Shown: in pieces, positions 20,350-64,000 of the stretch
How the letters are laid out: each line of letters starts with the position of its first letter
Position numbering within the stretch: position 1 is the stretch's first letter
Origin: Nemertoderma westbladi
Lineage: Eukaryota > Animalia > Xenacoelomorpha
Length of the DNA stretch: 64,000 bases
NCBI GenBank assembly: GCA_032718475.1
Contig: JAUCBJ010001066.1
Coordinates: forward strand, 1-64,000
Direction: 5' to 3'
Program-made: the position numbers and the translations under genes
Notes under the pieces: generated by a model
Seen by the model: only the letters and a program-made list of their open reading frames with translations
What the model was told of the DNA's origin: nothing
The model's database searches: none

Positions 20350-20576
20350 TCGTATTTCGTATCGTATCTTGGATTTTTCGTATCGTATGGTATTTTCCCA
20401 AAATTACATTCGTATCGTATGGCATTTTCCCAAAATTACATTCGTATCGTATCGTATAGCGAAAAATTGGTTCGTATCGTATCGTATTTTCGTATCGTAT
20501 CGTATCGTATCGTATCGTATCGTATCGTATCGTATCGTATCGTATCGTATCGTATCGAATCGTATCGTATCGTATC
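20350..20576. repeat. (ATCGT)n pentanucleotide microsatellite with degenerate 5' part
   Basis: Near-perfect CGTAT run at 20491-20575; CGTATCGTAT-containing ~32-bp units upstream. Confidence 0.9.
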
Positions 20577-23270: not shown

Positions 23271-23609
23271 ATGGGAGAGGTAACTACCGATAATTTAAAA
23301 TTCCTTCCGTTCTCTAGTTCAATAGAACCGGGGTTTTGGTACAATCTGTCTCAAAAGAAACTCAAAGAATTCAAACTGGACGCGAGTCCTAAACCTATCC
23401 TCGGGCGGTTCAGTATAGGGGAGGGCCACGGCTACCAACCAACTCTCTATGTCGAGTACGACGCATTGAACCCCAAAGAGAGACTCGGTAGTTGTAGCTA
23501 CTCAGTTAACGGGCAGCTTATAAATACCAACACCATCGACGACTTTAAGGCTCTAGACAAAAAACGTATCTTAGATGAGGCCGCTTCAAATATATGGGAA
23601 GTTGTCCGG
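23271..23609 (+). CDS. ATG7: ATG7 (autophagy E1-like enzyme) coding exon 1
   Basis: LKFLPFSSSIEPGFWYNLSQKKLKEFKLD...GQLINTNTIDDFKALDKK matches the ATG7 N-terminal domain. Donor CGG|GTAAGT, phase 0. Confidence 0.9.
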
Positions 23610-24210: not shown

Positions 24211-24812
24211 GACGGGTCTGCTTTATCCAATCCTAGCCTTCTAAACCAATTGATACTCATAACATTCGCCGACCTAAAGAAATACCACTTCTACTACTGG
24301 TTCTGCTTCCCAGGACTGTGTCTAACTCCTATACGTTTAATCTCTAAAACAACGTTGCGCCAATCATTGTCCCCTGATCAATCATCTACCCTAGTCCGAC
24401 TCTATGACTCATATCGTTCCACCAATAGCAGCGGTTTATTCAGTCTTCGTTTAGACGGAGACACTTTGAACTTATCCGGGTTTCATGAGGACGATATGAA
24501 TAGCGACGTTTGGATTGGATGTCCGGATCCCTCTGTTTCCCCTGACTACCCCGGTTGGCCAGTGAGGAATCTAATTGCGTTGCTAGGTTACCAGATACCC
24601 AAGGGCCAATCGCGTCGCTTTGCGTTGCTGTGTTACCGTTGTCTACGCACCAGTTCGGGCAACGATGTCGGACACAGTTTGCTGCTTAACATAGAGGTTG
24701 ATGGTTACCATGGCGATACCGTGGTCCCGAAATCGGTCGGCTGGGAGAAAAATAGAAAAGGGAAAACCGCGGCCCAGATGGTCAACCTCAGTGCGTCCAT
24801 GGATCCCTTACG
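24211..24812 (+). CDS. ATG7: ATG7 coding exon 2
   Basis: Acceptor CCCTTAG|GAC. Encodes DGSALSNPSLLNQLILITFADLKKYHFYYWF...PGWPVRN...VGWEKN...MVNLSASMDPL. Donor CG|GTTAGT, phase 2. Confidence 0.92.
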
Positions 24813-27800
24813 GTTAGTAGTGCGTCCATGGACTCCCCGCGGTTAGTAGTGCGTCCATGGACTCCCCGCGGTTAGTAGTGCGTCCATGGACTCCCCGCGG
24901 TTAGTAGTGCGTCCATGGACCCCCCGCGGTTAGTAGTGCGTCCATGGACCCCCCGCGGTTAGTAGTGCGTCCATTGACCCCCCGCGGTTAGTAGTGCGTC
25001 CATGGACCCCCCGCGGTTAGTAGTGCGTCCATGGACCCCCCGCGGTTAGTAGTGCGTCCATGGACCCCCGCGGTTAGTAGTGCGTCCATGGACCCCGCGC
25101 GGTTAGTAGTGCGTCCATGGACCCCCGCGGTTAGTAGTGCGTCCATGGACCCCCGCGGTTAGTAGTGCGTCCATGGACCCCCCGCGGTTAGTAGTGCGTC
25201 CATGGACCCCCCGCGGATAGTAGTGCGTCCATGGACTCCCCGCGGTTAGTAGTGCGCCCATGGACCCCCGCGGTTAGTAGTGCGTCCATGGACCCCCGCG
25301 GTTAGTAGTGCGTCCATGGACCCCCGCGGTTAGTAGTGCGTCCATGGACCCCCCGCGGTTAGTAGTGCGTCCATGGACCCCCCGCGGTTAGTAGTGCGTG
25401 CATGGACCCCCCGCGGTTAGTAGTGCGTCCATGGACTCCCCGCGGTTAGTAGTGCGTCCATGGACCCCCCGCGGTTAGTAGTGCGTGCATGGACCCCCCG
25501 CGGTTAGTAGTGCGTCCATGGACTCCCCGCGGTTAGTAGTGCGCCCATGGACCCCCGCGGTTAGTAGTGCGTCCATGGACTCCCCGCGGTTAGTAGTGCG
25601 TCCATGGACCCCCCGCGGTTAGTAGTGCGTCCATGGACTCCCCGCGGTTAGTAGTGCGTCCATGGACCCCCGCGGTTAGTAGTGCGTCCATGGACCCCGC
25701 GCGGTTAGTAGTGCGTCCATGGACCCCCGCGGTTAGTAGTGCGTCCATGGACCCCCGCGGTTAGTAGTGCGTCCATGGACCCCCCGCGGTTAGTAGTGCG
25801 TCCATGGACCCCCCGCGGTTAGTAGTGCGTCCATGGACTCCCCGCGGTTAGTAGTGCGCCCATGGACCCCCGCGGTTAGTAGTGCGTCCATGGACCCCCC
25901 GCGGTTAGTAGTGCGTCCATGGACCCCCGCGGTTAGTAGTGCGTCCATGGACCCCCCGCGGTTAGTAGTGCGTGCATGGACCCCCCGCGGTTAGTAGTGC
26001 GTCCATGGACTCCCCGCGGTTAGTAGTGCGTCCATGGACCCCCCGCGGTTAGTAGTGCGTCCATGGACCCCCCGCGGTTAGTAGTGCGTCCATGGACCCC
26101 CCGCGGTTAGTAGTGCGTCCATGGACCCCCGCGGTTAGTAGTGCTTCCATGGACCCCCCGCGGTTAGTAGTGCGTCCATGGACCCCCCGCGGTTAGTAGT
26201 GCGTCCATGGACTCCCCGCGGTTAGTAGTGCGTCCATGGACTCCCCGCGGTTAGTAGTGCGTCCATGGACCCCCCGCGGTTAGTAGTGCGTCCATGGACC
26301 CCCGCGGTTAGTAGTGCGTCCATGGACTCCCCGCGGTTAGTAGTGCGTCCATGGACTCCCCGCGGTTAGTAGTGCGTCCATGGATCCCTTGCGGTTAGTA
26401 GTGCGTCCATGGACTCCCCGCGGTTAGTAGTGCGTCCATGGACTCCCCGCGGTTAGTAGTGCGTCCATGGACTACCCGCGGTTAGTAGTGCGTCCATGGA
26501 CCCCCCGCGGTTAGTAGTGCGTCCATGGACTCCCCGCGGTTAGTAGTGCGTCCATGGACTCCCCGCGGTTAGTAGTGCGTCCATGGACTCCCCGCGGTTA
26601 GTAGTGCGTCCATGGACCCCCCGCGGTTAGTAGTGCGTCCATGGACCCCCGCGGTTAGTAGTGCGTCCATGGACTCCCCGCGGTTAGTAGTGCGTCCATG
26701 GACTCCCCGCGGTTAGTAGTGCGTCCATGGATCCCTTGCGGTTAGTAGTGCGTCCATGGACTCCCCGCGGTTAGTAGTGCGTCCATGGACTCCCCGCGGT
26801 TAGTAGTGCGTCCATGGACTCCCCGCGGTTAGTAGTGCGTCCATGGACCCCCCGCGGTTAGTAGTGCGTCCATGGACTCCCCGCGGTTAGTAGTGCGTCC
26901 ATGGACCCCCGCGGTTAGTAGTGCGTCCATGGACTCCCCGCGGCTAGTAGTGCGTCCATGGACTCCCCGCGGTTAGTAGTGCGTCCATGGACTCCCCGCG
27001 GTTAGTAGTGCGTCCATGGACTCCCCGCGGTTAGTAGTGCGTCCATGGCCCCCCGCGGTTAGTAGTGCGTCCATGGACTCCCCGCGGTTAGTAGTGCGTC
27101 CATGGATCCCTTGCGGTTAGTAGTGCGTCCATGGACTCCCCGCGGTTAGTAGTGCGTCCATGGACTCCCCGCGGTTAGTAGTGCGTCCATGGACTCCCCG
27201 CGGTTAGTAGTGCGTCCATGGACCCCCCGCGGTTAGTAGTGCGTCCATGGACTCCCCGCGGTTAGTAGTGCGTCCATGGACCCCCGCGGTTAGTAGTGCG
27301 TCCATGGACTCCCCGCGGCTAGTAGTGCGTCCATGGACTCCCCGCGGTTAGTAGTGCGTCCATGGACTCCCCGCGGTTAGTAGTGCGTCCATGGACTCCC
27401 CGCGGTTAGTAGTGCGTCCATGGCCCCCCGCGGTTAGTAGTGCGTCCATGGACTCCCCGCGGTTAGTAGTGCGTCCATGGACCCCCGCGGTTAGTAGTGC
27501 GTCCATGGACTCCCCGCGGTTAGTAGTGCGTCCATGGACTCCCCGCGGTTAGTAGTGCGTCCATGGACTCCCCGCGGTTAGTAGTGCGTCCATGGACTCC
27601 CCGCGGTTAGTAGTGCGTCCATGGACTCCCCGCGGTTAGTAGTGCGTCCATGGACTCCCCGCGGTTAGTAGTGCGTCCATGGACTCCCCGCGGTTAGTAG
27701 TGCGTCCATGGACCCCCGCGGTTAGTAGTGCGTCCATGGACTCCCCGCGGTTAGTAGTGCGTCCATGGACTCCCCGCGGTTAGTAGTGCGTCCATGGACT

Positions 27801-28911
27801 CCCCGCGGTTAGTAGTGCGTCCATGGACTCCCCGCGGTTAGTAGTGCGTCCATGGACTCCCCGCGGTTAGTAGTGCGTCCATGGACTCCCCGCGGTTAGT
27901 AGTGCGTCCATGGACTCCCCGCGGTTAGTAGTGCGTCCATGGACTCCCCGCGGTTAGTAGTGCGTCCATGGACCCCCGTGGTTAGTAGTGCGTCCATGGA
28001 CTCCCCGCGGTTAGTAGTGCGTCCATGGACTCCCCGCGGTTAGTAGTGCGTCCATGGACCCCCGCGGTTAGTAGTGCGTCCATGGACTCCCCGCGGTTAG
28101 TAGTGCGTCCATGGACTCCCCGCGGTTAGTAGTGCGTCCATGGACTCCCCGCGGTTAGTAGTGCGTCCATGGACTCCCCGCGGTTAGTAGTGCGTCCATG
28201 GACTCCCCGCGGTTAGTAGTGCGTCCATGGTCTCCCCGCGGTTAGTAGTGCGTCCATGGACTCCCCGCGGTTAGTAGTGCGTCCATGGACTCCCCGCGGT
28301 TAGTAGTGCGTCCATGGACTCCCCGCGGTTAGTAGTGCGTCCATGGACTCCCCGCGGTTAGTAGTGCGTCCATGGACTCCCCGCGGTTAGTAGTGCGTCC
28401 ATGGACCCCCGCGGTTAATAGTGCGTCCATGGACTCCCCGCGGTTAGTAGTGCGTCCATGGACTCCCCGCGGTTAGTAGTGCGTCCATGGACTCCCCGCG
28501 GTTAGTAGTGCGTCCATGGACCCCCCGCGGTTAGTAGTGCGTCCATGGACTCCCCGCGGTTAGTAGTGCGTCCATGGACCCCCCGCGGTTAGTAGTGCGT
28601 CCATGGGCCCCCCGCGGTTAGTAGTGCGTCCATGGACTCCCCGCGGTTAGTAGTGCGTCCATGGACTCCCCGCGGTTAGTAGTGCGTCCATGGACTCCCC
28701 GCGGTTAGTAGTGCGTCCATGGACCCCCCGCGGTTAGTAGTGCGTCCATGGACTCCCCGCGGTTAGTAGTGCGTCCATGGACCCCCCGCGGTTAGTAGTG
28801 CGTCCATGGACTCCCCGCGGTTAGTAGTGCGTCCATGGACCTCCCGCGGTTAGTAGTGCGTCCATGGACCCCCCGCGGTTAGTAGTGCGTCTATGGACCC
28901 CCGCGGTTAGT
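24790..28911 (+). repeat. 29-bp (28-bp variants) tandem array, ~143 copies, made from the ATG7 exon 2/intron 2 junction
   Basis: Unit AGTGCGTCCATGGACTCCCCGCG|GTTAGT. The first copy (24790-24818, AGTGCGTCCATGGATCCCTTACG|GTTAGT) is the last 23 coding nt plus intron +1 to +6. Confidence 0.97.
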
Positions 28912-28996
28912 TATGTATTTCTATAGCAGCGATTAGATGTTTATTTATCTGCCCCCTTAGCCTTTTTAATCCCCCCCCCCTCCCCCGCACCCACAG

Positions 28997-29202
28997 ATTG
29001 GCTGATTCCTCAGTGGATCTGAACCTCGAATTAATGAGATGGAGGATTCTACCTCAACTCCAATTGGACGTTGTAAAGGAGGCACGGTGTTTGTTGCTAG
29101 GCGCCGGTACACTTGGTTGTGCAGTCTCCCGTTGTCTCATTGGTTGGGGCGTAAAGAATATTACTTTAATAGATAATTCCCGCGTATCTTATTCCAACCC
29201 AG
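28997..29202 (+). CDS. ATG7: ATG7 coding exon 3
   Basis: Acceptor CCACAG|A completes CGA (Arg). Encodes [16 protein letters not shown]...[11 protein letters not shown] (nucleotide-binding GxGxxG)...VSYSNP. Donor CAG|GTAAAG, phase 1. Confidence 0.93.
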
Positions 29203-36407: not shown

Positions 36408-36442
36408 TGGTGTTATCCTTCTCCTAGAAACGGGTTTCTCAC

Positions 36443-39382
36443 TTACCTTGTTTTCCAGTGTCTTCTCTCTGCACTTCTCTCTGCTCTCTGGGCTTCTCTC
36501 TGTAATTTCACTTCTCCATCTAAGAATGACATGAGATCAGCCATGGTAGGGTCTCGTCGTTGTTGTTCCATCATATATAACACTTTCTTGTCCCAGCGTG
36601 TACCTACTCCACCCTTGGGCAAAGTAGATGCTAAGGCTCCTACAACCATAGAATTCTGGTATTCATGAGACTTACCTAGCCAATCTAATTGTCTACAGAT
36701 CTCCTGAATCTCATCGGAAAACTCTATAATCCCGCTGCTAAGAAACTTTCGGGGCGCCATTAATTTTGCATACAAATACCTAGCTATGTTATTCCTATTA
36801 CCATACCTGATGTTTAGTGTATCCCAAACTTGTCTTAATCCGTCTGGATGTCCAATAAATTTTAACGCCATTAACTTGGGAGGTCCTTCCAAGCATTCGA
36901 TGAGGTATCTGAGTTTCTCTCCGTTAGATAGCACAGAATTCTGTATGTTATCTTTGTAATATTCATTAAAAGGTAACCATTTCATCTCATCTCCATTGAA
37001 CTTGACGATCTCTCCAACCTTTACCGCTTGACGGGCTTCGGTTCTAGCCATTTGACGCGTAAAACTTTCTTGAGCCATCGTATTATTGAATATAGAATTA
37101 TCGGTATATAAATTTCTCGGATTATGATCAGGTCTATATGGAATATTATTATCAACAGGTTTATAATCACCCTGAATAGGGTTTACTATAGGAGTTTCTA
37201 CTTCACTAGCAGTATAGATGCGTGTAGGCTCCACACCTTGCGCATGAGATACTTCAGACCTAACGGGTTGACACATTGTTACAGGGGGTGGTGGTATACC
37301 CTTTTGTAAATTGACTAATTTATCGCGTTCGAACGCGATACTTTGCTGCACTTCTTGCAACTCTAACCTACTTTCCCTTACTGTGCCCTTGAATTGCTGA
37401 ACGGTCTCCTGCATCTGTCCGAGCAGGAGATCCATCCCCCGTCGTCTCTCATCCACCCATTCGACCGCCGAAGCGGGATTTGCCAACGTTGTAGCGGGCG
37501 GACGAGGGACAACGGGCGACAAATCATGAATATTTCGCTCAGAGTCCAGGGCATGAACTGTCTCATGGGCTGTTCTGCTGGGCACAGGTAGCTTGGTACT
37601 GTGCAAAGGGAATTTAGAGGTAGGTTCAGGGAGTACAGGTGTCTCTACCACTGAAAGGGTGGCTTCGGGAACAGGCCTAATTATTTCAGGCTCATCTACT
37701 ATAGTAGGGAGTCTTTCTATTGTAATTATTTGGTCTGTGGGTTCTGTACTACCCAAGTTGGTATTATTTAGTTGCCTTCTAACAGCTGGAGGCAAATCAG
37801 GCAATTTCTGACGGTGGGATGTTCTTTTACGTCTGCTTAGGTGAGATCTATTTCCTTTGCCTTCAGTATCGGTGGTATCGCCTTCCTCAGATGATGTATA
37901 TCCCTGTCTTTTGGGAGTAGATCGATTCATCATCTGCATATTACTAGCTGTTAACTGTTTATTTATGCAGTCTTGATTCTCCTGAATATTTTCCAATTCT
38001 AATTGGGCGATCTCTTCAGCCGCTATCTGCTCTGCTTCTGCCGCTGCCATTGCCGCTTTTCTTTCCATTTCAGCTGCTTTTCTTTTCGCTTCTGCCTCTG
38101 CCGCTGCCGCTGCCGCTGCCACTGCCGCTTTTCTTTCCATTTTGGCTGCTTTACTTTCCTCTTCGGCTGCTTTCCTTTCGGCTTCTGCAGCTGCTACTGC
38201 TGCTTTCTTTCTGTCTTCTATGCGTTTTTTCTTCACCCTTTCTTCTTGGTCTCTAGCGATGCGGAGTTGTTCATCGAATTTAGCTTGGTTCGCCGCTAAC
38301 CTATCCACATCAATTGCGTCCAACACATGCTGGGCTCCTTCACTATTAGGGCTAAGTCCATCTAGCCTTCTCCTCAACTCTTCATCTCCCAAAAAACGCT
38401 GATAGTCTGACAGATAGATGTCAATGGCATCCCTCTTATGCGGTTTCTCTGCCGTCGCTTCACTTTCCACTTGGGAAAAAGTAGCGTCTGTTGATTCTCC
38501 ATGGGTTGAGCGCTCCTCCAGCTGAGCTTTCCACTGAGCTGTTCCTTGAACCTGGAGACTCACCCGTTGAAACCAAGTCTTTACGGCAACTTGCAACGAC
38601 GTGTCTTGTCTTCTTTTAGAAGCCTCTTCAAAGGCTGATAATATTAGCCTGATTCGCAGAATTCTTTCTCTAACTTGATAAAGCAGTTGTCCCTGCTCTT
38701 GAGGTCCTTGAGGTTGTTGGAACAGTTGTTCTTTTACTCGCTCCATAGAGCTGAAGAATCCCTGTGCGTATCCGGCTGCGGACCTCTTCCACACAGCTGG
38801 ATCGATGGTTTCCTTGGCTACTCCCATCCGGTGTATGTCTTCCCAGGCAGCTTCTGATAAATCAAACGGGAGTCCGGGTCCGGGAAAGTTCCATTGCGAC
38901 TCGACCATAGACTTCAGTTCTTCCCTTGTGTATCCCTCATAACTATCTTTAGTTGATCGCTTACTTCTCGCCCAATCGATCTGGTGTTCTTCCACCGCAA
39001 TCAATAACCTAGTGAGTACGGCTGCAGGAAGGATGAGAAGGGGATCCGAATAAACCGCATCCGTCATCCTTGCTCCGCGCTCGGGTGTCAGCTCTACAGT
39101 ATCCTCACTACTGGAGCTGTCGGGCCGCTGAGAAATAAGTTCTTGGCTCGCGGGTTGTTGCTGTTCCGCTGCTTCTTGGTCCCGCTTGACCTGGGCTCGA
39201 GTGCCTATGATAGACCTATGGTGTTGGACCAGCCTAGGTTCTGTTATTACTACTGGAGGGATGACCTTCCTCACAGTGGGAGGTGAACTGAACTTAGGTG
39301 TAGACGGTTCTACACCCTTATCTGAGTCGCAAATAGTTGCATCTAATAAACTGTCTGACAGGTTCTGCTTAGTATCAGACAT
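36443..39382 (-). CDS. BEL/Pao Gag N-terminal/capsid ORF (979 aa) with long coiled-coil and low-complexity extension
   Basis: C-terminal IVKFNGDEMKWLPFNEYY...LSNGEKLRYLIECLEG...WDTLNIRYGN is the BEL/Pao gag core (DUF1759-type). AAAEAERKAAE repeats lie upstream. Confidence 0.82.
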   Translation of the reverse strand: MSDTKQNLSDSLLDATICDSDKGVEPSTPKFSSPPTVRKVIPPVVITEPRLVQHHRSIIGTRAQVKRDQEAAEQQQPASQELISQRPDSSSSEDTVELTPERGARMTDAVYSDPLLILPAAVLTRLLIAVEEHQIDWARSKRSTKDSYEGYTREELKSMVESQWNFPGPGLPFDLSEAAWEDIHRMGVAKETIDPAVWKRSAAGYAQGFFSSMERVKEQLFQQPQGPQEQGQLLYQVRERILRIRLILSAFEEASKRRQDTSLQVAVKTWFQRVSLQVQGTAQWKAQLEERSTHGESTDATFSQVESEATAEKPHKRDAIDIYLSDYQRFLGDEELRRRLDGLSPNSEGAQHVLDAIDVDRLAANQAKFDEQLRIARDQEERVKKKRIEDRKKAAVAAAEAERKAAEEESKAAKMERKAAVAAAAAAAEAEAKRKAAEMERKAAMAAAEAEQIAAEEIAQLELENIQENQDCINKQLTASNMQMMNRSTPKRQGYTSSEEGDTTDTEGKGNRSHLSRRKRTSHRQKLPDLPPAVRRQLNNTNLGSTEPTDQIITIERLPTIVDEPEIIRPVPEATLSVVETPVLPEPTSKFPLHSTKLPVPSRTAHETVHALDSERNIHDLSPVVPRPPATTLANPASAVEWVDERRRGMDLLLGQMQETVQQFKGTVRESRLELQEVQQSIAFERDKLVNLQKGIPPPPVTMCQPVRSEVSHAQGVEPTRIYTASEVETPIVNPIQGDYKPVDNNIPYRPDHNPRNLYTDNSIFNNTMAQESFTRQMARTEARQAVKVGEIVKFNGDEMKWLPFNEYYKDNIQNSVLSNGEKLRYLIECLEGPPKLMALKFIGHPDGLRQVWDTLNIRYGNRNNIARYLYAKLMAPRKFLSSGIIEFSDEIQEICRQLDWLGKSHEYQNSMVVGALASTLPKGGVGTRWDKKVLYMMEQQRRDPTMADLMSFLDGEVKLQREAQRAERSAERRHWKTR

Positions 39383-39535
39383 GTTTGTTTACACAGTTGA
39401 ATGCCTACTGCTATATTACAGTCTAAGCAAGTCTAGTAATTCAGCATTAACTGCTAACCTAGTAATTAATTACCGATACTGCTACTCAGTGTAGCGTGAT
39501 ATATATATAATATTAGAATACCGGTATGCTTATAG

Positions 39536-40431: not shown

Positions 40432-42087
40432 TCCACGAAGCTAAGGAAAATCAACTACTTTCGCTAAGAAAGATTTTCCTTAGCTGAGATGGTCTATTCA
40501 TAGTGGGCTATTTTACTTGTGTGAGGCAGATTTGGGGTTTTTTGATAGGCGAAAAAACTAGCCTTTAAAAGTACCCTGAAATTTTGCATGTATATACTAC
40601 TCGGCGAGGCGCATCTTTTGGGCCGGGTCTCATATCCAGGAAAAATCTGGTTTCCATGGCAACGGACTTCAAAAAAAGTCTATGTATTTCAAGTCAATAT
40701 TTATAACTCTATTTGTAGGAAAACTATAATAGATTTAAACTTGGGGTTTTGCAACACAACTATAAGGTCCATAGCAGATCCGATTGAGGCTAAATAGAAA
40801 ATCCAGTTACGTTGGCAACCGGGATAAACAGATGTTAAAATTTATAAAATGATAATTTGAGGCCTAAGGGCAAGGTGTTATGACTTGAGACCAACCCCTA
40901 CCCCCACTATATAACTTATTCTGCATCCGAATTACATTGTTCTATTTTTCAGTTACCATGACAACAGCCGAAAACAGATGTTTTTATACAAAAATTATTC
41001 ATTTGGACATAGACTTCGCGATAAAATTTTACAAAACTGGGTATGTGTTATCTGCACCACTAGTTGGAACTTTTAGTGAAACTTAAATCATTCCAGAAAT
41101 TTAGTTACCATGGTAACTGTAGTTTATTAAACTCTATATCATTCAAGTCTATATTGATAACTCTATTTCTAGCAAAACTGTAATATATATAAACTTGGGG
41201 TTTTGTAACTCATCTATAATTTCCATATCCATCCAAGCCGTTTGAGGTTAATTAGAAAGTACAGTTACCATAGCAACAAGACTAAACAGATGTTACTATT
41301 TATAAAATGATAATTTGAAGCACAAGTTAATAGTATTATGACTTGGGACCAAGACCTACCCCCACTATATGACTTATTCTGCATCCGAATTACATTATTA
41401 TATTTTTCAGTTTCCATGACAACCACTGCAAACAGATGCATTTTGATAGAAAATCGGTAATTTGGACATAAACTACAATATTTTCTGAAACTCGGTATAT
41501 GTGTTATAATCTGAACCACAATCTGGACTGAATCTTTTTTCAAAGGTAAAACCCACAGTTCCAGAGAACTCTAGTTTCCATGGGAATAGACGTAAATTAT
41601 TGGCAATTGCTACTAAACTAGGCTATAAGCAACGAACCAAAGTGTGGCCGTTTGTTTAATTTTCCTTAGCTTCGTGGTTGCATTTCCTTTAGGAAATGCC
41701 TTTCTCGTAATAGTATTATGACTTGGGACCAAGACCTACCCCCACTATATGACTTATTCTGCATCCGAATTACATTATTATATTTTTCAGTTTCCATGAC
41801 AACCACTGCAAACAGATGCATTTTGATAGAAAATCGGTAATTTGGACATAAACTACAATATTTTCTGAAACTCGGTATATGTGTTATAATCTGAACCACA
41901 ATCTGGACTGAATCTTTTTTCAAAGGTAAAACCCACAGTTCCAGAGAACTCTAGTTTCCATGGGAATAGAAGTAAATTATTGGCAATTGCTACTAAACTA
42001 GGCTATAAGCAACGAACCAAAGTGTGGCCGTTTGTTTAATTTTCCTTAGCTTCGTGGTTGCATTTCCTTTAGGAAATGCCTTTCTCG
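40432..42087 (+). mobile_element. Helitron-like element copy 2 (40432-41707) plus a 380-bp tandem duplication of its 3' end
   Basis: 5' TC. The 3' end has the subterminal IR ATTTTCCTTAGCTTCGTGG, the hairpin GCATTTCCT-TT-AGGAAATGC and CTTTCTCG|T. The 3' segment repeats at 41708-42087. Confidence 0.72.
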
Positions 42088-42206
42088 TATATATAAGTAT
42101 TATTAGTAACTAGAATTAATTACAGAATACCGGTATGATTTCAGCACAAATATATAAATATATAATAGGCCTATCGTGGATACCGGTATGCAGTTTACAC
42201 TTATAG

Positions 42207-45159: not shown

Positions 45160-46630
45160 TCCACGAAGCTAAGGAAAATCAACTACTTTCGCTAAGAAAG
45201 ATTTTCCTTAGCTGAGATGGTCTATTCATAGTGGGCTGTTTTACTTGTATGGAGCAGATTTAGTGTTTTTTGATAGGTGAAAAAACTAGCCTTTAAAAGT
45301 ACCCTGAAATTTTGCATGTATATACAACTCATCAAGGCGCGTCGTGTGGGATGGGTCTCATATCCAGGAAAAATCTGGTTTCCATGGCAACGGACTTAGA
45401 AAAAAGTCTATGTATTTCAAGTCAATATTTGTAACTCTATTTGTAGGAAAACTATAATACATATAAACTTGGGGTTTCTCAACACAACTATAAGGTCCAT
45501 AGCAGAGCCGATTGAGGTTAAATAGAAAATCCAGTTACCTTGGCAACCGGGCTAAACAGATGTTAAAATTTTTAAAATGTTAATTTGAAGCCTAAGGTTA
45601 AGGTGTGATGACTTGGGACCAATCCCTACCCCCACTATATAACTTATTCTGCGTCCGAATTTGATTGTTCTATTTTGCAGTTACCATGACAACCGCTGAA
45701 AACAGATGTTTTTATACAACAATTATTCATTTGGACATAGACTTCACGATAAAATTTTACAAAACTGGGTATGTGTTATCTGGACCACTAGTTGGAACTT
45801 TTAGTGAAACTCAAAACATTCCAGAAATATCTAGTTACCATGGTAACTGGAGCTTATTAAAGTCAATATCATTCAAGTCTATATTTTTAACTCTTGTTTG
45901 TAGGAAAACTGTATTAGATATAAATATTGGGTTTCCCAACTCAACTATAAGGAAGGTCCTTAGAGGAGCCAATTGTGGTTAATTAGAAAATCCAGTTACC
46001 TTGGTAACCAGGCTAAACAGATGTTATAATTTAAAAAATTATAATTAGAAACACAAGTTAAAGGCATTATGACTTGGGACCAACCCCTACCACCATAATA
46101 TCACTTATTCTGCATCCAATCTACGTTGTTCTATTTGCCAGTTACCTTGACAACCACTGCAAACAGACTTTTTAACAAATTAATAATTAATTTTGCACAT
46201 AAACTACTCAATGAAGCTTCCTTGAAGTCGATGTGTCACCTGGAACCACAAACTAGATCTTAATGTAAAACTCAGCATTTCTAGAAAAGTCCAGTTACCT
46301 TGGCAATACCGGGAGTTCTTTTAACTCGGTAAATCAATGAACTGATGAGTCAAAGAGTGTCTAATTTTCCTTAGCTTCGTGGTTGCATTTCCTTTAGGAA
46401 ATGCCTTTCTAGTTTACCTAAGTCTTCCTTGAAGTCGATGTGTCACCTGGAACCACAAACTAGATCTTAATGTAAAACTCAGCATTTCTAGAAAAGTCCA
46501 GTTACCTTGGCAATACCGGGAGTTCTTTTAACTCGGTAAATCAATGAACTGATGAGTCAAAGAGTGTCTAATTTTCCTTAGCTTCGTGGTTGCATTTCCT
46601 TTAGGAAATGCCTTTCTAGTTTACCTAAGT
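45160..46630 (+). mobile_element. Helitron-like element copy 5 (45160-46412, divergent 3' half) plus a 207-bp tandem duplication of its 3' end and flank
   Basis: A|TC...CTAG|T. 46217-46423 is repeated at 46424-46630. Confidence 0.75.
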
Positions 46631-50983: not shown

Positions 50984-51150
50984 TCCGCCAGTGCCTTTAC
51001 GAATTCAACGATTGCCTGGAAGGCGGCGCTAAGAAGGCTGAATGTGCGGCTTCCCATCTCAAACGAATATTTCCTGGAGTCAACGCTGTTGGTATAGAAC
51101 TCAGTGTACCAATGCCGGCCCACACACTGGCTGACTCAATGGTAGAACAG
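50984..51150 (+). CDS. ATG7: ATG7 coding exon 4 (not in the ORF track)
   Basis: Acceptor TTTTTATTTGCAG|TC completes GTC (Val). Encodes VRQCLYEFNDCLEGGAKKAECAASHLKRIFPGVNAVGIELSVPMPAHTLADSMVEQ, continuing SNP|VRQ of ATG7. Donor CAG|GTAGGG, phase 0. Confidence 0.92.
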
Positions 51151-52912
51151 GTAGGGACTCAGTGTACCAATGCCGACCCACACACTGGCTGACTCAATGG
51201 TAGAACAGGTAGGGACTCAGTGTACCAATGCCGGCCCACACACTGGCTGACTCAATGGTAGAACAGGTAGGGAGGGACTCAGTGTACCAATGCCGGCCCA
51301 CACACTGGCTGACTCAATGGTAGAACAGGTGGGGACTCAGTGTACCAATCCCGGCCCACACACTGGCTGACTCAATGGTAGAACAGGTAGGGACTCAGTG
51401 TACCAATGCCGGCCCACACACTGGCTGACTCAATGGTAGAACAGGTAGGGACTCAGTGTACCAATGCCGGCCCACACACTGGCTGACTTAATGGTAGAAC
51501 AGGTAGGGACTCAGTGTACCAATGCCGGCCCACACACTGGCTGACTCAATTGTAGAACAGGTAGGGACTCAGTGTACCAATGCCGGCCCACACACTGGCT
51601 GACGCAATGGTAGAACAGGTAGGGACTCAGTGTACCAATGCCGACCCACACACTGGCTGACTCAATTGTAGAACAGGTGGGGACTCAGTGTACCAATCCC
51701 GGCCCACACACTGGCTGACGCAATGGTAGAACAGGTAGGGACTCAGTGTACCAGTGCCGGCCCACACACTGGCTGACGCAATGGTAGAACAGGTAGGGAC
51801 TCAGTGTACCAATGCCGGCCCACACACTGGCTGACTCAATGGTAGAACAGGTAGGGACTCAGTGTACCAATGCCGACCCACACACTGGCTGACTCAATTG
51901 TAGAACAGGTGGGGACTCAGTGTACCAATCCCGGCCCACACACTGGCTGACGCAATGGTAGAACAGGTAGGGACTCAGTGTACCAATGCCGGCCCACACA
52001 CTGGCTGACGCAATGGTAGAACAGGTAGGGACTCAGTGTACCAATGCCGGCCCACACACTGGCTGACTCAATGGTAGAACAGGTAGGGACTCAGTGTACC
52101 AATGCCGGCCCACACACTGGCTGACTCAATTGTAGAACAGGTGGGGACTCAGTGTACCAATCCCGGCCCACACACTGGCTGACTCAATGGTAGAACAGGT
52201 AGGGACTCAGTGTACCAATCCCGGCCCACACACTGGCTGACTCAATGGTAGAACAGGTTGGGGGTCAGTGTACCAATGCCGGCCCACACACTGGCTGACT
52301 CAATGGTAGGAGAGGTTGGGAATCAGTGTACCAATGCCGGCCCACACACTGGCTGACTCAATGGTAGAACAGGTAGGGACTCAGTGTACCAATGCCGGCC
52401 CACACACTGGCTGACTCAATGGTAGAACAGGTAGGGACTCAGTGTACCAATGCCGGCCCACACACTGGCTGACTCAATGGTAGAACAGGTAGGGACTCAG
52501 TGTACCAATGCCGACCCACACACTGGCTGACTCAATGGTAGAACAGGTAGGGACTCAGTGTACCAATGCCGGCCCACACACTGGCTGACTCAATGGTAGA
52601 ACAGGTAGGGACTCAGTGTACCAATGCCGGCCCACACACTGGCTGACTCAATGGTAGAACAGGTAGGGACTCAGTGTACCAATGCCGGCCCACACACTGG
52701 CTGACTCAATGGTAGAACAGGTAGGGACTCAGTGTACCAATGCCGGCCCACACACTGGCTGACTCAATGGTAGAACAGGTAGGTAGGGACTCAGTGTACC
52801 AATGCCGGCCCACACACTGGCTGACTCAATGGTAGAACAGGTAGGGACTCAGTGTACCAATGCCGGCCCACACACTGGCTGACTCAATGGTAGAACAGGT
52901 AGGAACTCAGTG
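51099..52912 (+). repeat. 58-bp tandem array, 31 copies, made from the ATG7 exon 4/intron 4 junction
   Basis: Unit ACTCAGTGTACCAATGCCGGCCCACACACTGGCTGACTCAATGGTAGAACAG|GTAGGG, which is 52 coding nt plus intron +1 to +6. Confidence 0.97.
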
Positions 52913-52946: not shown

Positions 52947-53168
52947 GTGAAGCGTGATGTGCGCACTCTAGAGGAGTTAATAAGAACTCATGATTGCATA
53001 TTCTTATTAATGGATTCCAGAGAGAGCCGTTGGTTACCGACTATGTTGGCGACAGCCAATAGGAAACTAGTGATTAACGCGGCCTTGGGATTCGATACTT
53101 ATATGGTGATGCGTCATGGTGTCCCCGCTGATAATCAACTAGAAGGGGACGATAACATTATTAACCAG
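52947..53168 (+). CDS. ATG7: ATG7 coding exon 5
   Basis: Acceptor TTTTATAG|GTG. Encodes [31 protein letters not shown]...[17 protein letters not shown]. Donor CAG|GTAAAG, phase 0. Confidence 0.93.
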
Positions 53169-53466
53169 GTAAAGTACAACCAAAACTCAACTGTTTTTGA
53201 CACCATTAATTATTTAGATGGTGATGGACACATCAAATTGTAATTAACTAATTTAAAATTAAATGTTAGAAAATTCAGCGCATTTCACTTTACCGATTAA
53301 TGCAATGTATTGACGATAGTAAAACAAATTGATCATATTATATTAGCTAATTGATTATCCTCGCAAGAGTTAATTAAAATTAGGTCAACATATCGTTTTA
53401 GAACCTATGATAGGAAAATCGATGTGTTGGTCTAGCAGCTAGGGATAGCATAGTGTGTGTGATACC

Positions 53467-54381
53467 TTAATTAGTTAAAGAACAATATTGGTGATTAATG
53501 CCAGTTTGTGTGACTGTGACCAGTCTGTAACCAGGTTTATCGTCACCTATCTGCAGACTTACTGCCGACGTAACAATCTGTTCTACGCCGTTCCACGAAC
53601 TAACCGCGTTCCTATGGTAATGACCACAGAATACGGCTGTCACTCCTGCCTGTTTGAACTTATCGAGCATCGGTTTACGGAGCTCCATCGGTAGCGAGAA
53701 ATACTTCGACTTATCTGAGTTCCTTGGGGAGTCGATATCGCCAAGGTAATAGGGGATGTGTTGGAATACTAAGGCCTGTTTACAGCCCTTGATTCCCGCC
53801 AAAACCCTGTCCACCCATTGGTCCATACCTAGCCTCTCAGCAGACGCTTTACTGTCGTCCATATAGAGCTGGGAGTTTAACACGACCATCGCAACTCCGC
53901 CCACCCAGAACGAGTAGTAATCGTCGCCGAATGTCCGCCGATACTGAGCGATAGTCTGCGGGGTTGGGGATTCCCCGACGTCGTGGTTCCCACAGACGCA
54001 CAACAAGGGAACCTCGGGTCGTAGTTTACGGAACGCCGATATGAAGTCGCGTTCCATCGCCCCGCGTTGCTTCATCCACGGGTAGCCGTGGACCTGGTCC
54101 CCGCATACGATGAGGAACCGCGGCGACGGGTCCATTCGGTTTACCGTGTCGACGAGACGAGCGACCCTCGCCAACTCCTCGTCCCACACGAGATCGTTGC
54201 GGAGTTCGCTCTGCATTCGATCCACGTTGAAGTCGTCTATGAGTCCGAGTTGCGTGTCCGCCGCTTGTATAAAACTGAAGCCACCTCTCCACTCGCCCTC
54301 ACTTTCTTTACTCAATCCTATATGATCTAAGGAACGGTTGATCGCTTTGTGTTGGAGTTCCTCCATTACTGTGTCTGACAT
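53467..54381 (-). CDS. CPPED1: Calcineurin-like Ser/Thr phosphoesterase CPPED1, 304 aa, single coding exon, nested antisense in ATG7 intron 5
   Basis: Metallophosphoesterase motifs FIQAADTQLG, VCGDQVH, CGNHDVG, FQHIP and FCGHYHRN, plus CPPED1-typical FGDDYYSFWVGGV...VLNSQ. Confidence 0.88.
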   Translation of the reverse strand: MSDTVMEELQHKAINRSLDHIGLSKESEGEWRGGFSFIQAADTQLGLIDDFNVDRMQSELRNDLVWDEELARVARLVDTVNRMDPSPRFLIVCGDQVHGYPWMKQRGAMERDFISAFRKLRPEVPLLCVCGNHDVGESPTPQTIAQYRRTFGDDYYSFWVGGVAMVVLNSQLYMDDSKASAERLGMDQWVDRVLAGIKGCKQALVFQHIPYYLGDIDSPRNSDKSKYFSLPMELRKPMLDKFKQAGVTAVFCGHYHRNAVSSWNGVEQIVTSAVSLQIGDDKPGYRLVTVTQTGINHQYCSLTN

Positions 54382-54641
54382 CTGGTTGTTTTCCTATTTA
54401 CTGGTTTATACTCCATTAGGCTACTCAGATAGTGGCCCTGCGAACATTGAGCTGGTAGTTGTTTTGAACGACACTAGCCGAACAAGCCTGAAATCAGATA
54501 AATAGTTTTTTTTGTTTTACTTTACGCTTTTAATGACAATTATATTACCGTGTAAATAAATATTAACTCATAAATGGGTAAATCCCAAATGGCGGGAAAT
54601 TCAAACCGATATAGTATTTCAGTATTTCAGTCTGTGTACTG

Positions 54642-54770
54642 TACACGTTCGTGGGGCCTTCGCGCAGCACGAGGCCCAGTTATGAGATACAAATTAAAAT
54701 TGAGCGACTGTATCACAAAATCAGGTTTTGAGAAATTTACCCACACCACCAATCAATCAAAGAAAGGGTG
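54642..54770 (+). repeat. Short dispersed repeat with a GC-rich hairpin (second copy 60607-60725)
   Basis: ACACGTTCGTGGGGCCTTCGCGCAGCACGAGGC.CAGTTAT.AGA.ACAAATTAA occurs at both positions. Confidence 0.7.
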
Positions 54771-54888
54771 ACAGTACGTGTTCACCCCTTTTAATCCCCC
54801 CCCCCCCACCCTTCCCAACCACCAATACATAACCGCGACATCTACCACCCACGGAAGGGTAGCACGAACTTATTTCCAATCGCACGTT

Positions 54889-55180
54889 CAATATGCAAAG
54901 CCAGGTGGTTTATAGGAATATAATAAACGCAGTACTCGTTTTCATTATAAGCCTCGTTGCGTTCGTCCTGTTTTGTATTTAAATATATTTCTTAAACGCA
55001 GGCTAGGACGATCTTTATAATAATAATAACTAGGGATGCGATCAATATGTGAAGCCAGGTGGTTTATATAATAATTTAGTCAACGCAGTACTCGTCTTCA
55101 TTATATGCCTCGTTGCGCTCGTCGCTTGTCCTGTTTTGTCATAAAATATTTTTCCTAAACGCAGACTGACGATCTTTATA
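54889..55180. repeat. Two diverged ~150-bp tandem units
   Basis: AATATG..AAGCCAGGTGGTTTATA...AACGCAGTACTCGT...GCCTCGTTGCG...TAAACGCAG...GACGATCTTTATA occurs twice. Confidence 0.7.
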
Positions 55181-56419
55181 CAGTTATAACTATGCGAAGT
55201 TTCGAAACTGTGCGAGTAACTGTTGATACATCTATGTGGAGATGTGTGATATGTGGAGATGTGTGATACAACGCCAACGCATCTTATGCCGATGTAGTAA
55301 TATGGGTATTGAAATAATATTAAATCAATGTACACTCTTAAAGCTGCAGCGAAAAAATGTAGCTAATTTCCTAGGTTACATATAAAATAATAATATTATT
55401 TTTAAGAACATTAATTTTACTACTTTGCAAAAATTCAATTAAAAAATAACCAGACATATACATTGTGGAATAAACTATTTCAGAAGCCTACAACAGCCAT
55501 GCCATGGATTGTATTTATGTTATTATATCTGTCATTTACCTGAGATAGCAATAGTAGTAGTAGTCGAACGGTTATGCGGCCCGTCCAGCCTATAATAAAC
55601 ACAATTCAGTGATAGTGATAATAATACAACACTTATAGTAGAGTCAATAGGAATTGGAATACAGGAAGGATGTTGGGATGTTGGATTTAAAGAATGCTGT
55701 CTGGGCTGGAATAGCAATACTGGTTGCCTATTACAATTCCTCTCTGGTTAGTCTACAGCCACAACTCCCAGCTAGCTAGCTCCACACCAGCAGAGACTTG
55801 ACCAATAATGGGAAGGATTAAATTTGTACTCAATAATTGTGCCGTTTAATTACGTTTAGATCAATTAAAGACACATTTATTAAAGCAAATCACTTGAACT
55901 AATTAAAAACTATAATAGAATGGCGTATGTGGATTACATCTGTATAATTTTTAAGTATAATTATTTAAATCTTATACTGTAAAACAATTAATTTCCTTTA
56001 AAAGGCAGGTTGAAAATGGTGTTTTCACCGTAATCAACTTAATTAACTAATTAACTGCTATTATCTTAGCTTCTCGAAGGCCACACGGAAATTCTACTTG
56101 GAAAATTTCTAAACTTTTGCCAAACAACATGTGTACCAAGTTTGGATAGATTTCATCAAAGATTGGCCGAGTTATTAACGTTTAAAATTGAACGCGACAG
56201 AACGACAGGTTGATTAATGGTACCACTACGCTAAGGCTCACTCACTTCGTGGCTCGCCCCACATGGGACCTATCGATGCCAGTGGACGTCATGGACTACC
56301 CCCCATGCCCCCCCCCCCCCCCCCCCCGCATATCATCGCATAATCCATTTAGAATTCTCAAATCAGGCATGGAATCCATGGCAGCTGCACGATATTGATT
56401 TGCCTGAGGACGTTCAGGG

Positions 56420-56770
56420 CAAATTTGTTAGGAATATTTCAGGTCTGACGGGATAGCTTATGATGATAAATTAGCTCAGATCGGTCTTACAACTCTATCA
56501 GATCGGAGAAAATGGGGTGATGTGATTCAAACCTTCAAAATTATCAACAGTATAGATAATGTTGAAAATAATTGGTTCAAGTTGTAAGACACCGAATCAA
56601 ACAAGACAATTGGTTTCGATGTCGAATAATGGGGTACCAATACCCAAGTTGAGTGTAGTTCCTCCTAAGTGGGAGTTTCGAAAGAACTTTTTTAGCTGTC
56701 GTGTTGTAAATGACTGGAACAACCTCCCTCAAGAGACACAATTTCAAAAAAGATACGACAAGTTTATTAA
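56420..56770 (+). mobile_element. 3' fragment of a CR1-group LINE
   Basis: Translates to YDDKLAQIGLTTLSDRRKWGDVIQTFKII and RKNFFSCRVVNDWNNLP, typical CR1 ORF2 C-terminal motifs, with stops and frameshifts. Confidence 0.75.
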
Positions 56771-57043
56771 TTTTATAATTAAAGAAGATTTCTAAAGACG
56801 TTTAAGCATTAAAAACGTTCAATAAACAAAATAGTAATAAAATAAAATAAAAAAATGCAAAATAGTGCAATAAACCTATATATTATTATATTATTATCAT
56901 ATTTTGACTAGGTGAGGGGGACATAATCCTCTAGCAGATGTTTACCCACCTAGGACCAAATCTGCTAGCAGCGAGGGGATTTATGTTAGCCTGATTGATA
57001 TAAACGGAGGGCGGACTTTTCTAACCAAAGTTGTTTTCTTCAG

Positions 57044-57226
57044 GGCCTTGCTGCGGATAATAAACGACTGGGCTGTTATTTCTGTAACGATGTCGTCGCA
57101 CCTGGCGACTCTACCAGGGATCGAACTCTCGACCAACAATGCACCGTCAGCCGACCTGGTCTATCTATGCTCACTGCCGCGCTCGCTGTAGAACTCTTTG
57201 TCTCCGTATTGCAGCACCCTCTACAG
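57044..57226 (+). CDS. ATG7: ATG7 coding exon 6 with the catalytic cysteine (not in the ORF track)
   Basis: Acceptor TTTTCTTCAG|GGC. Encodes [31 protein letters not shown]...[16 protein letters not shown]. Ends at a non-canonical donor CAG|GCAAGT, phase 0. Confidence 0.92.
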
Positions 57227-57494
57227 GCAAGTTTACGAACTCTGTATTAGAAGCTCGATGAAAATTGATAAACTACATACAGAAAGGCTATTTAACTAAA
57301 TTTCCGCAATAATAATAATTAATTTTAAACCAAATTTAAATTCTAAAATAAATTCTAACCCTAACCTTATATAGCTATTATTTATATACACACACACTGC
57401 TAAGGCTAACTACAGTACTTTATCTAAATCCTGCTTAATGGCTACAGTAGTTCACTAACTATTTCCAGTTTGGTTCCCAGATTTGACTCCCCTT

Positions 57495-57901
57495 TGTTTC
57501 CTTAGGGTTTAGCACCCGCTATATCTTCAGCCAATGACACCCATCTAATGGTTGAACCCTGTTGTTTCCTTAGGGTTTGGCACCCGCTATATCTTCAGCC
57601 AATGACACCCATCTAATGGTTGAACCCTGTTGTTTCCTTAGGGTTTGGCACCCGCTATATCTTCAGCCAATGACACCCATCTAATGGTTGAACCCTGTTG
57701 TTTCCTTAGGGTTTGGCACCCGCTTTATCTTCAGCCAATGACACCCATCTAATGGTTGAACCCTGTTGTTTCCTTAGGGTTTAGCACCCGCTATATCTTC
57801 AGCCAATGACACCCATCTAATGGTTGAACCCTGTTGTTTCCTTAGGGTTTGGCACCCGCTATATCTTCAGCCAATGACACCCATCTAATGGTTGAACCCT
57901 G
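57495..57901 (+). repeat. 68-bp tandem array, 6 copies, made from the ATG7 intron 6/exon 7 junction
   Basis: Unit TGTTTCCTTAG|GGTTTGGCACCCGCTATATCTTCAGCCAATGACACCCATCTAATGGTTGAACCCTGT. AG acceptors end at 57505, 57573, 57641, 57709, 57777 and 57845. Confidence 0.96.
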
Positions 57902-58181
57902 CACCCCATTGGGCGTCATTCCTCATTCAATTCGCGGATTCCTCTCCCGATTCCAAACAATTCTTCCTCTGAGTTTCGCCTTCTCAGCCTGCGTGGGCTG
58001 CAGCGCTCCCGTGATTGACAGCTACAACACGGACGGGTTTGACTTCCTCATTAAGGTCTTCAATGATTCTGACTTTCTGGAACAACTCACCGGATTGGCT
58101 GCTATGAAGGCGGACACCCTGAGTGATGACCTTATTGCTCTCAGTGACTCTGAGGATGATGACCCACCTAATATGTTATAG
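57846..58181 (+). CDS. ATG7: ATG7 coding exon 7 (last)
   Basis: GLAPAISS...PLGVIPHSIRGFLSRF...AFSACVGCS...FLIKVFNDSDFLEQLTGL matches the ATG7 C-terminus; stop TAG at 58179-58181. The spliced CDS totals 2055 nt (684 aa). Confidence 0.9.
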   Translation, partial: GLAPAISSANDTHLMVEPCTPLGVIPHSIRGFLSRFQTILPLSFAFSACVGCSAPVIDSYNTDGFDFLIKVFNDSDFLEQLTGLAAMKADTLSDDLIALSDSEDDDPPNML

Positions 58182-61619: not shown

Positions 61620-62985
61620 ATTTATACGCTGACGAAAATGCTTCTTTTTAATTTGAGTGTTTTAATTTAGATGATAGTGCGTTCCAAATTGAATAATTCA
61701 TAGATGCTTCGTCGGAAGTTAGGCGGACCTTCGGAATAGAGAAACCATCGGTTAGGCGAGTAGCAAGGCGAGTTGTGTATCTGTGTACAGAGGAAATTGT
61801 AGTGAGGTTTAAATAGGTTAGCATTTATATCGTACATGAGGGATCCTACTTGGTGTTTATAGAGGAGGTCAATAGGTTGAATGCCGAGAGACTTATAGAT
61901 AGGTTTAGAAGAAGCTCGGCAGTGCGAGAAAGTAATACAGCGGAGGAGTTTGTTTATTTTTATACGTAGGGGTTGTAGGGTAGAAGAATGGGTTTTGCCC
62001 CAGAGTAGAATGCCATATAATAAATAGGGGTGTACAGGTGAAAAATCTAGTTTGCGAAGTATACGAAGGGGAAATATGTGGCGCAGTTTGTAGAATATTC
62101 TGGAGGTTCTAGACGTAATATGTTTGATGTGAGATTTCCAGTTTAAGTTGTCATCTACTAGAACCCCTAGAAATTTAGAATGTGGTTTTCGAGTAATGGG
62201 GAATGGTTAATTAGTATTGGGTCGTATTAGTGGGTATTAGGGTAGTTAGAGTATAGCATATTCAGTCTTAGATAGGTTGAGAGATAGACGGTTGTCTGAT
62301 AGCCAATCCGCAATCTTAGATAATTCAGAGTTAGTTATGGTGATTAAAGAGTCAAGATTAGGTTTAGCTATATGAAGAGTTGTGTCGTCAGCAAATAATG
62401 TTGAGATTAGTGAGGTAGCATTGGGAAGGTCGTTAATATACAATAGGAATAGGTTTGGCGAAATAGTGGCGCCTTGTGGGACACCACATGTAATAGGTAG
62501 ACTAGAAAAATGGTGGTTACCAATTGAAACAAATTGGGTTCTAGAATCTAGGAAGCTTGAGAGTAGTTGTTGCGGTATTCCCTAGATACCATAGGAGTTT
62601 AGCTTAGAGGTTAGGATAGAGTGATCAATAGTGTCGAAAGCCTTTTTTAGATCTATATATATAGCACTTGTGTGTAGTTTTTGATCTAGGTATTTGTGAA
62701 TATTCAATAACAACGGATAGCAGAGCATGGGATGTTGTAGATTTAGGGCGAAAGCCGAATTGAGAATTAGACAATATGGAATATTTTTTTAGGTACGAAA
62801 GTAGTTGGTTATTAATTATGGATTCGTACAGTTCGTTAATTACGGGTAGAAGAGAAATAGGTCGGTAGTTATTAGTGTCCGATGGGTCGGCACTCTTGAA
62901 TACGGGAATGACTTTGGCCGATTTAAGAGCCTTAGGGAAGAAGGCTTGAGTTATCGATAGGTTAATTAGGTGAGATAGGGCTGCC
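61620..62985 (-). mobile_element. Degenerate CR1/L2-group LINE reverse transcriptase remnant
   Basis: The minus strand gives LSHLINLSI...FPKALKSAKVIPVFK..DPSDTNNYRPISLL, IDLKKAFDTIDH, CGVPQG and YINDLP...LFADDT...WL..NRLSLN.SKT, with several stops and frameshifts. Confidence 0.85.
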
Positions 62986-64000
62986 TCATGGGTCGTGGTA
63001 AAATCACATCCTCGAGTCCACTATCTGCCATCAAGGTCCCAATACAACTAACTAATGAAACTCAATAGTGTGTGCTTTCCGCCTAATTTAGGAATGAAAT
63101 TTTCAAATCATTCGGGGTACATCCATATTATTTGTACTGTTATCTTATAGAGTTGCTGATCTTTGGTAAATATTGTTTCAGTTTGACCACATTGATGGGT
63201 GAGTCGTTGGCCTTCAGTCACAGCTGTTAACATTGTGAACTAAAATACTTACCTAAATGTAATTCATCTACAATAGTTCCTGTGAATATCAACGACCTTT
63301 GAATCTTATTTAGAATCATTGTCTAGTCTACATAGCAACAGTTATCATGGTAACTGTGGCCAGAAACCAAGTTCAATAATACGGTTGTCATATTAACTGT
63401 GATTCGAATACAAGTTCTGTATGCGATATACTGAGGGAATATGTTGATACTGAGGTCGCATAATGGTTAAGTTGGTGTTTGCTATAGCGTGAACCGAAGA
63501 TTACTGCCCCTAGCAACGGTTGCCAGGGTAACAGTGGTTTGAAAATAAGCTCATCGAATTCGCAATCATTGATTTATTCAAGTTTGGGGTAAATCCTGTA
63601 ACCATTGTGTGTTTAAAACATGGCAGCTGCAGATAAACACCCCGGTAACCATGGTAACACGGTTTATGAGAAATGCTCAAGGTTGTAGGGGCGACACCCT
63701 CCTAAATATTGTTCAGCAGGGTCTAATGAGTAGGCCTACAAAACCGATGAAACATTTTATGGGTATAAAAATACACGGTTCACCAAAATTTGTGCTATTT
63801 GCTGCCGGACTATTATTATCATCCTTCTCTTAACAGTATAGTTTACCTATAACTCATTGCATTCATATTTTCTGATTATTTGGATGAATCCAAAATATAC
63901 ACGTTATCTTTCTCATCCATTCTATACTGTAGGGAAACAACCCACTAGCGATATCTTCATACTAGCGATCCATTTTCTTACAAGTTATAAGAAAATACGT

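Follow-up and report, generated by a model that had tools for sequence, protein, structure and literature searches.

Boundary-spanning minisatellites in an ATG7 gene: a probable mirage of six acceptor copies and two larger donor-side arrays

Mirages and other minisatellites that span an exon-intron boundary are known from the Adh3, globin and PGBD5 genes of amphioxus and from the human genes F7, CBS and 6-16. The founding paper on mirages is said to be that of Canestro et al., in NAR in 2002. As described in the accessible parts of two amphioxus studies (PMC3087553, PMC3902484), mirages affect 5′ as well as 3′ boundaries, leave splicing undisturbed, vary in length and are considered a possibly general cephalochordate feature. 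An acceptor-side case is given there as well: in BflGb6, the repeated unit comprises an intron's 3′ end together with the 5′ portion of the following exon, with six and three units in two haplotypes (PMC3087553, PMC3902484). For the human arrays, the available portion of a further report (PMC1557585) describes a 37-bp minisatellite of 5-9 copies in IVS7 of F7, whose first unit spans the exon-intron boundary and whose donors are identical; the most upstream donor alone is used, and mutational work supports a choice oriented from 5′ to 3′. The same portion lists 25 pseudo-sites in 6-16, 15-20 repeats in IVS13 of CBS, 10-15 units of 100 bp in LMNB2 and 16-18 units of 81 bp in PDGF; splicing in LMNB2 and PDGF takes the most upstream site alone, and one or two pseudo-sites are used too in 6-16 and CBS (PMC1557585). 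In the literature that we searched, whose coverage leaves out most subscription journals, no published case beyond lancelets and human genes was found.

Here we describe three junction-spanning arrays in one ATG7 gene, located in a 64,000-nt stretch of DNA (the window, to which all positions refer). The 68-bp array at the last acceptor, array c, had been singled out in the original prediction as a puzzle of its own; the array is real, but it belongs to a described class of repeats and shares its gene with two larger, donor-side arrays, a and b, that had been missed (Table 1). In each of the three, TRF found head-to-tail units of minisatellite size, and each unit carries a splice signal along with the exon edge to which that signal belongs. 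Array c is a known class of repeat in a new host and gene, and not a new mechanism.

The gene was recognized by seven collinear exon matches to a nemertean ATG7 (P0001; tblastn, ends refined on the sequence), which is the closest database protein and is 50% identical on the last exon. Pfam placed ATG7_N on two exons and ThiF on others, and found no domain on the last and penultimate exons; a PDB search of solved structures paired the frame of the last exon (57846-58181) with the C-terminal end of yeast Atg7 (E = 1.7e-11). For the N-terminal exon, identity is 38-42% alike with proteins of Branchiostoma, bivalves, fish, mammals and cnidarians. The donor of the last intron is GC and not GT (CAG/GCAAGT, 57227-57232), in agreement with the joint of a spliced contig described below, and 340 of the 619 nt of this intron are five extra copies of the array c unit. 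A second gene, which is intronless and encodes a CPPED1-like metallophosphoesterase of 308 codons (53470-54393, minus strand; Pfam Metallophos, E = 1.4e-08), is nested in ATG7 intron 53172-57043; its best identity is 45-47% (echinoderm, hemichordate, cnidarian), and identity to B. belcheri is 44%.

Table 1. Exons, arrays and splice signals of the ATG7 gene in the window; X1 to X4 are sequencing runs
Feature	Position	Strand	Basis
ATG7 exon, N-terminal domain, ends approximate	23292..23597	+	tblastn P0001; Pfam ATG7_N E = 1.2e-28
ATG7 exon, end ...GGATCCCTTACG; authentic donor GT 24813-14 (ACG/GTTAGT)	24214..24812	+	tblastn; ATG7_N E = 3.8e-45; X4 loose end equals exon end
Array a, 29 bp x 143, 96% match	24790..28911	+	TRF; sequence; counts; high-depth contigs X1, X2, X3
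ATG7 exon, ThiF domain start	28997..29202	+	tblastn; Pfam ThiF E = 4.9e-14; X4 piece 28996-29202
ATG7 exon; authentic donor GT 51151-52 (CAG/GTAGGG)	50984..51150	+	tblastn; X4 loose end behind 29202 equals exon start
Array b, 58 bp x 31 (31.1), 96% match	51099..52912	+	TRF; sequence; counts
ATG7 exon	52947..53171	+	tblastn; Pfam ThiF; X4 loose end before 57041 equals exon end
Penultimate ATG7 exon, 61 codons, phase 0	57044..57226	+	tblastn; X4 contig piece
Last ATG7 intron, GC-AG, 619 nt	57227..57845	+	X4 joint skipping 619 nt
Array c, 68-bp unit x 6.1 copies, 98% matches, 0 indels	57490..57901	+	TRF; unit listing; unit-to-unit junction contigs in X1, X2
Five decoy acceptor AGs, each leading to an early stop (57504-05, 57572-73, 57640-41, 57708-09, 57776-77)	57504..57777	+	unit listing, translation
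CTAAT, exon-derived part of unit 5, predicted branch point	57817..57821	+	motif, A at -25
Sixth AG, productive	57844..57845	+	X4 joint; translation
Last ATG7 exon, coding part, 111 codons + TAG	57846..58181	+	PDB match; tblastn; translation

Each unit of array c joins the closing 17 nt of the final ATG7 intron, with its pyrimidine tract and AG (CCCTGTTGTTTCCTTAG), to the 51 nt with which the last exon opens, and reading of the sequence gives six exon starts (57506, 57574, 57642, 57710, 57778 and 57846). Apart from three changes, a G>A found both in unit 1 and in unit 5 (GGTTTAGC) and an A>T found in unit 4, units 2-6 are identical, and unit 1 departs in its first bases (CCCCTTTG versus CCCTGTTG). 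The 17-nt tract is the same at all six acceptors, and the 30 nt upstream of it are the same in units 2-6. CCCT closes the array, with a short edge-to-edge homology of ~4 nt. We read the frames from the penultimate exon (57044-57226, phase 0) through all six acceptors. Use of acceptors 1, 2, 3 or 5 adds 36 residues before a TAA in the next unit (...CCC ATC TAA), which agrees with the earlier claim that acceptors 1-5 all run into this codon; acceptor 4 departs from it, the frame being closed after 24 residues by a TAG at 57782 that the G>A variant of unit 5 creates. Acceptor 6 is the sole one of the six that keeps the frame, giving 111 residues that include CVGC and end at 58179-81, just as had been predicted for the AG at 57845 and the CxxC motif.

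Eight sequencing runs from three studies were listed, none of them on record as RNA, and five hold part of the stretch. X1 and X2 come from two studies, and X2 and X3 share one sample. At the edges of array c the contigs of X1 and X2 break off, and in each run a short contig carries the unit-to-unit junction, GGTTGAACCCTG followed by TTGTTTCCTTAG, which is impossible in a one-copy locus. In X1 this contig (57804-57881) has a depth of 18, with flanks at 5.6-7.2, and in X2 (57804-57860) a depth of 28, with flanks at 17.4-25.7; summed contig depth is not a copy number, and De Bruijn contigs cannot span the array. We conclude that at least two copies are present in both studies. The X3 contig skips exactly 340 nt (57493->57834), or five units, and reads G in place of the A found in unit 1 of the window. 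X2, from the same sample, holds the unit-to-unit junction; the one-copy form is either a real allele or an assembler collapse. A single copy in genomic reads had been named in advance as a result that would speak against the array; multi-copy junctions are found in X1 and X2, and the one-copy form in X3. At three positions (57047, 57048 and 58189) all four runs X1-X4 differ from the window (C>G, T>C and G>T), so its haplotype or base calls are unlike those of every available run.

The fourth run, X4, belongs to the third, independent study and is labelled 'DNA?'; it derives from another individual than the window, whose number of array c copies may differ. It contributes a single 1666-nt contig, at a depth of 1356.6, which consists of exons only and leaves introns uncovered. 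Since several introns are absent and none is covered, we infer that X4 is cDNA, though it is not recorded as RNA. Its pieces differ from the window at 5/184, 3/557 and 1/207 letters. At the last intron the contig skips 619 nt (57224->57844) with three shared letters, so that four placements can be drawn; only 57227..57845 gives GC..AG ends, that is, a junction 57226/57846 made with the sixth AG. The contig carries no sequence of internal array c copies or of other intron parts, a gap that is not proof of their absence. No alternative junction or truncated isoform was seen in the X4 contig; contigs drop rare forms, and acceptors 1-5 may have minor use.

Among the outcomes foreseen in the original prediction, distal selection fits the X4 joint, which is as expected from the sixth AG; that this AG is chosen among six copies we infer, X4 being another individual that may differ in array length. 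The X4 junction could stem from a one-copy allele, in which case it would say nothing about a choice among six. The same holds for the statement that an mRNA made mainly with acceptor 1 would reduce the locus to a damaged allele: the junction in X4 is that of the sixth AG, in an individual that may differ in copy number. Re-splicing, which had been offered as a further route, is rejected because the junction left by use of an upstream acceptor, CAG/GGTTT(A/G), lacks a GT at +1/+2 and so does not recreate a 5′ splice site.

The donor-side arrays follow the same plan on a larger scale. In array a, the unit is made up of the 23 nt that close exon 24214-24812 and a GTTAGT after them; the array takes up 98% of its 4184-nt intron, which holds 139 GTTAGT sites. 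One of these 139, the first donor, keeps the frame. The pseudo-sites are mutually alike, 137/139 reading GCG/GTTAGT as compared with ACG/GTTAGT at the authentic donor. Contig depth over array a reaches 500 in X1, 196 in X2 and 150 in X3, with flanks at 16.1, 22.2 and 11.6. In array b, the unit combines the final 52 nt of exon 50984-51150 with GTAGGG, and this array fills 98% of its 1796-nt intron. Of its 31 in-register donors, 23 read exactly as the authentic CAG/GTAGGG does, and donor 1 is the one donor in 31 that keeps the frame. Sites identical to the authentic donor, as in F7, thus make up 23/31 in array b; in array a, 137/139 differ from it by GCG in place of ACG.

The X4 contig bears on both. 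Its record positions 1272-1478 lie on 28996-29202, and the loose end before 28996 is TCAACCTCAGTGCGTCCATGGATCCCTTGC, which equals the exon end specific to copy 1 (window 24783-24812) with one A>G difference that looks synonymous; internal copies of array a read GGACTCCCCGCG, unlike this exon end. The first of ~140 donors of array a is therefore represented in mRNA. Between record positions 885 and 1272 the contig has 386 letters, with 389 expected from exons 52947-53168 and 50984-51150. This arithmetic, with its 3-nt shortfall, leaves no room for a 58-nt unit and so indicates that array b is absent from the mRNA; the shortfall might come from an in-frame indel that separates the two individuals, or from a splice site displaced by 3 nt. 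Taken across the gene, the outermost site is the authentic one and a single copy is found in the mature mRNA, by X4 joints for arrays c and a and by length only for array b, in RNA of another individual.

Array c resembles the amphioxus mirages, as far as the available parts of those reports describe them, in that its units straddle a splice junction and, going by the X4 contig, the outermost, authentic copy is the one spliced to and the mRNA is normal. It differs in its host, which is not a cephalochordate: ATG7 and the CPPED1-like protein are about 40-44% identical to their Branchiostoma counterparts, which are no closer than those of molluscs, fish or cnidarians. It also differs, from what those parts contain, in the presence of three arrays in one gene, in copy numbers of 31 and 143 that lie far above the published mirage numbers, and in the GC donor of the array c intron. 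Arrays a and b have the build of the human donor-side arrays, in whose accessible description the first unit likewise sits on the boundary and 5′ splice sites are reiterated in the intron; for array a the first-donor junction is found in an RNA contig, as first-donor use is described for F7, LMNB2 and PDGF. By comparison with the same partial description, array c is on the acceptor side and it is the last copy, not the first, that has to be used; and donor choice in F7 was tested by mutation, whereas the arrays here are known from sequence and contigs. Duplicated splice signals, sequence removed with the intron and an unchanged mRNA are shared with the Rogers model of intron gain by tandem genomic duplication, as presented in the parts available (PMC3265369, PMC3087553). 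Unlike in that model, no new intron is formed: an intron already present in ATG7 has been extended with copies of one of its own boundaries.

We consider it probable (roughly 0.8) that array c is a mirage-type minisatellite, in which six head-to-tail copies of the boundary sit within the last intron and would probably be spliced out along with it, through pairing of the GC donor at 57227 with the sixth AG. It is apparently a harmless type of repeat and not a new splicing device. Such arrays may have originated by tandem duplication between short homologies, for which CCCT in array c, ~8-10 nt of (GA)ACTCAGTG in the 58-bp array b and AGT in the 29-bp array a are candidates, and may have grown by slippage or unequal exchange. 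The copies would persist as neutral because the outermost site restores the old mRNA. Choice of the last AG might reflect terminal-exon definition, copy six alone having the rest of the terminal exon downstream, with a branch point that would be supplied by CTAAT in the exon-derived part of unit 5; in arrays a and b, the first donor could be favoured by a 5′-to-3′ preference like that of human F7 intron 7. Classical experiments on duplicated sites yielded conflicting rules, according to the available portion of the report (PMC1557585), so precedent does not decide how the last AG comes to be chosen.

The motif in question had been anticipated as a branch-like CTAAT with its A 25 nt upstream of the next AG, and it was located before the last AG at 57817-57821. 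Its second A lies 25 nt before the G of that AG, and no other YTNAY occurs within the 70 nt upstream; in random placements of a 70-nt stretch in the window, CTAAY is present in 4.3% and any YTNAY in 38%. On motif and spacing, CTAAT in unit 5 is a plausible branch point of the last AG. The original candidates, CTAAC (A at 57458) and TTGAC (A at 57486), are 359-387 nt away from the last AG on its upstream side, with several AGs in between. We also considered RNA structure. The fold of 57400-57960 has an energy of -148.2 kcal/mol (z = -3.62), and its small hairpins (AACCCU...AGGGUU round each tract) recur in every unit, the last included; the fold does not, for this reason, explain the choice of the last AG.

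An array inflated by the assembler of the window from a single boundary is very unlikely. The one-copy contig of X3 would be expected in that case, and De Bruijn contigs are unable to span the array; against it stand the junction GGTTGAACCCTG/TTGTTTCCTTAG in X1 and X2 contigs from two studies, at depths above or near those of the flanks, and the differences among units (A or G at unit position 23, and a T in unit 4), which argue against simple stutter. More weight, while still unlikely, falls to a damaged or leaky allele, that is, a six-copy haplotype that uses upstream AGs largely and is recessive or mildly harmful beside a single-copy allele. Its product would be an ATG7 cut after ...MVEP and extended by 18 or 6 frameshifted residues, without the C-terminal 93 residues, and its messages would not be expected to undergo junction-dependent decay, as holds for stops in a last exon. 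The single-copy form in X3 supplies a possible partner allele, the RNA contig may itself derive from one, and neither the shared 17-nt tract nor the 30 nt common to units 2-6 sets the sixth acceptor apart. These points are countered by the two much larger arrays of the same build in ATG7, of which array a is deep in all three DNA-like runs, X1, X2 and X3, across two studies; junction arrays are thus evidently tolerated in this gene. Described mirages and F7-type arrays splice normally and, as a weaker point, no X4 contig holds a unit-to-unit junction.

Somewhat less likely again than a leaky allele is a regulatory use of the arrays as decoys that would tune ATG7 output by unproductive splicing or bind U1/U2AF in the intron. 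Three junction arrays in one gene would suit such a role, as would decoy donors that are nearly identical (23/31 in array b, 137/139 in array a) and, in the available part of the human report, the use of some pseudo-sites in CBS and 6-16 (PMC1557585). However, identity of units is expected from concerted evolution of a young minisatellite, copy number seems variable and no alternative junction was seen. A mirage-type repeat spliced out with its intron is the reading that we prefer over all three.

Five arrays with a TRF score of at least 100 lie in the ATG7 span, and three of the five are seeded on a splice junction. The probability of three or more such seeds out of five by chance is ~0.0013 under a uniform null (28,108 nt of gene with the expansions removed, 12 junctions), a null that takes no account of selection acting against repeats inside exons, or of the higher G+C of exons, the arrays lying in G+C-rich bins. 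The statistic speaks of non-randomness and not of mechanism. That junction-anchored minisatellites of this lineage are made preferentially at splice junctions by transcription- or splicing-linked mutation, and are not merely tolerated there, seems to us doubtful; if it were true, genomes of this kind would offer natural ground for studying, on the donor as well as the acceptor side, how a single site is selected from several identical ones. As mirage-type repeats outside cephalochordates, the arrays are three in one essential gene, and acceptor-side cases with RNA evidence are few. Near-identical donors numbering 143 and 31, and six acceptors that are identical and each have a candidate branch point, make them extreme natural material in which to test how splice sites are chosen. 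Junction arrays can also mislead gene predictors and assemblers at exon edges.

The window holds further genes and repeats. ATG7 intron 29203-50983 is 21.8 kb long and has minus-strand frames at 34725-36536 (604 codons) and 36446-39388 (981 codons, DUF1759, likely a retroelement), exact two-copy duplications of 380 bp (41328-42089) and 207 bp (46217-46630), and a dispersed repeat seen as near-identical 82-codon frames at 39653, 40549 and 42324. Outside ATG7, a 773-codon frame at 6030-8348 (plus strand) has HeH/SAP-like, SPRY and AAA_33 domains and is hnRNP U-like, and a 351-codon frame at 16161-17213 (minus strand) encodes an RNase HII of RNASEH2A-like type. Minisatellites outside ATG7 were found at 12713-13670 (21 bp x 45), at 10341-10470 (14 bp x 9.3) and at 20377-20576 (32 bp x 3.7, beside (TCGTA)n). 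Retroelement copies with reverse-transcriptase frames (RVT_1) flank the gene region at 18717-20132 (plus strand) and 61670-63020 (minus strand).
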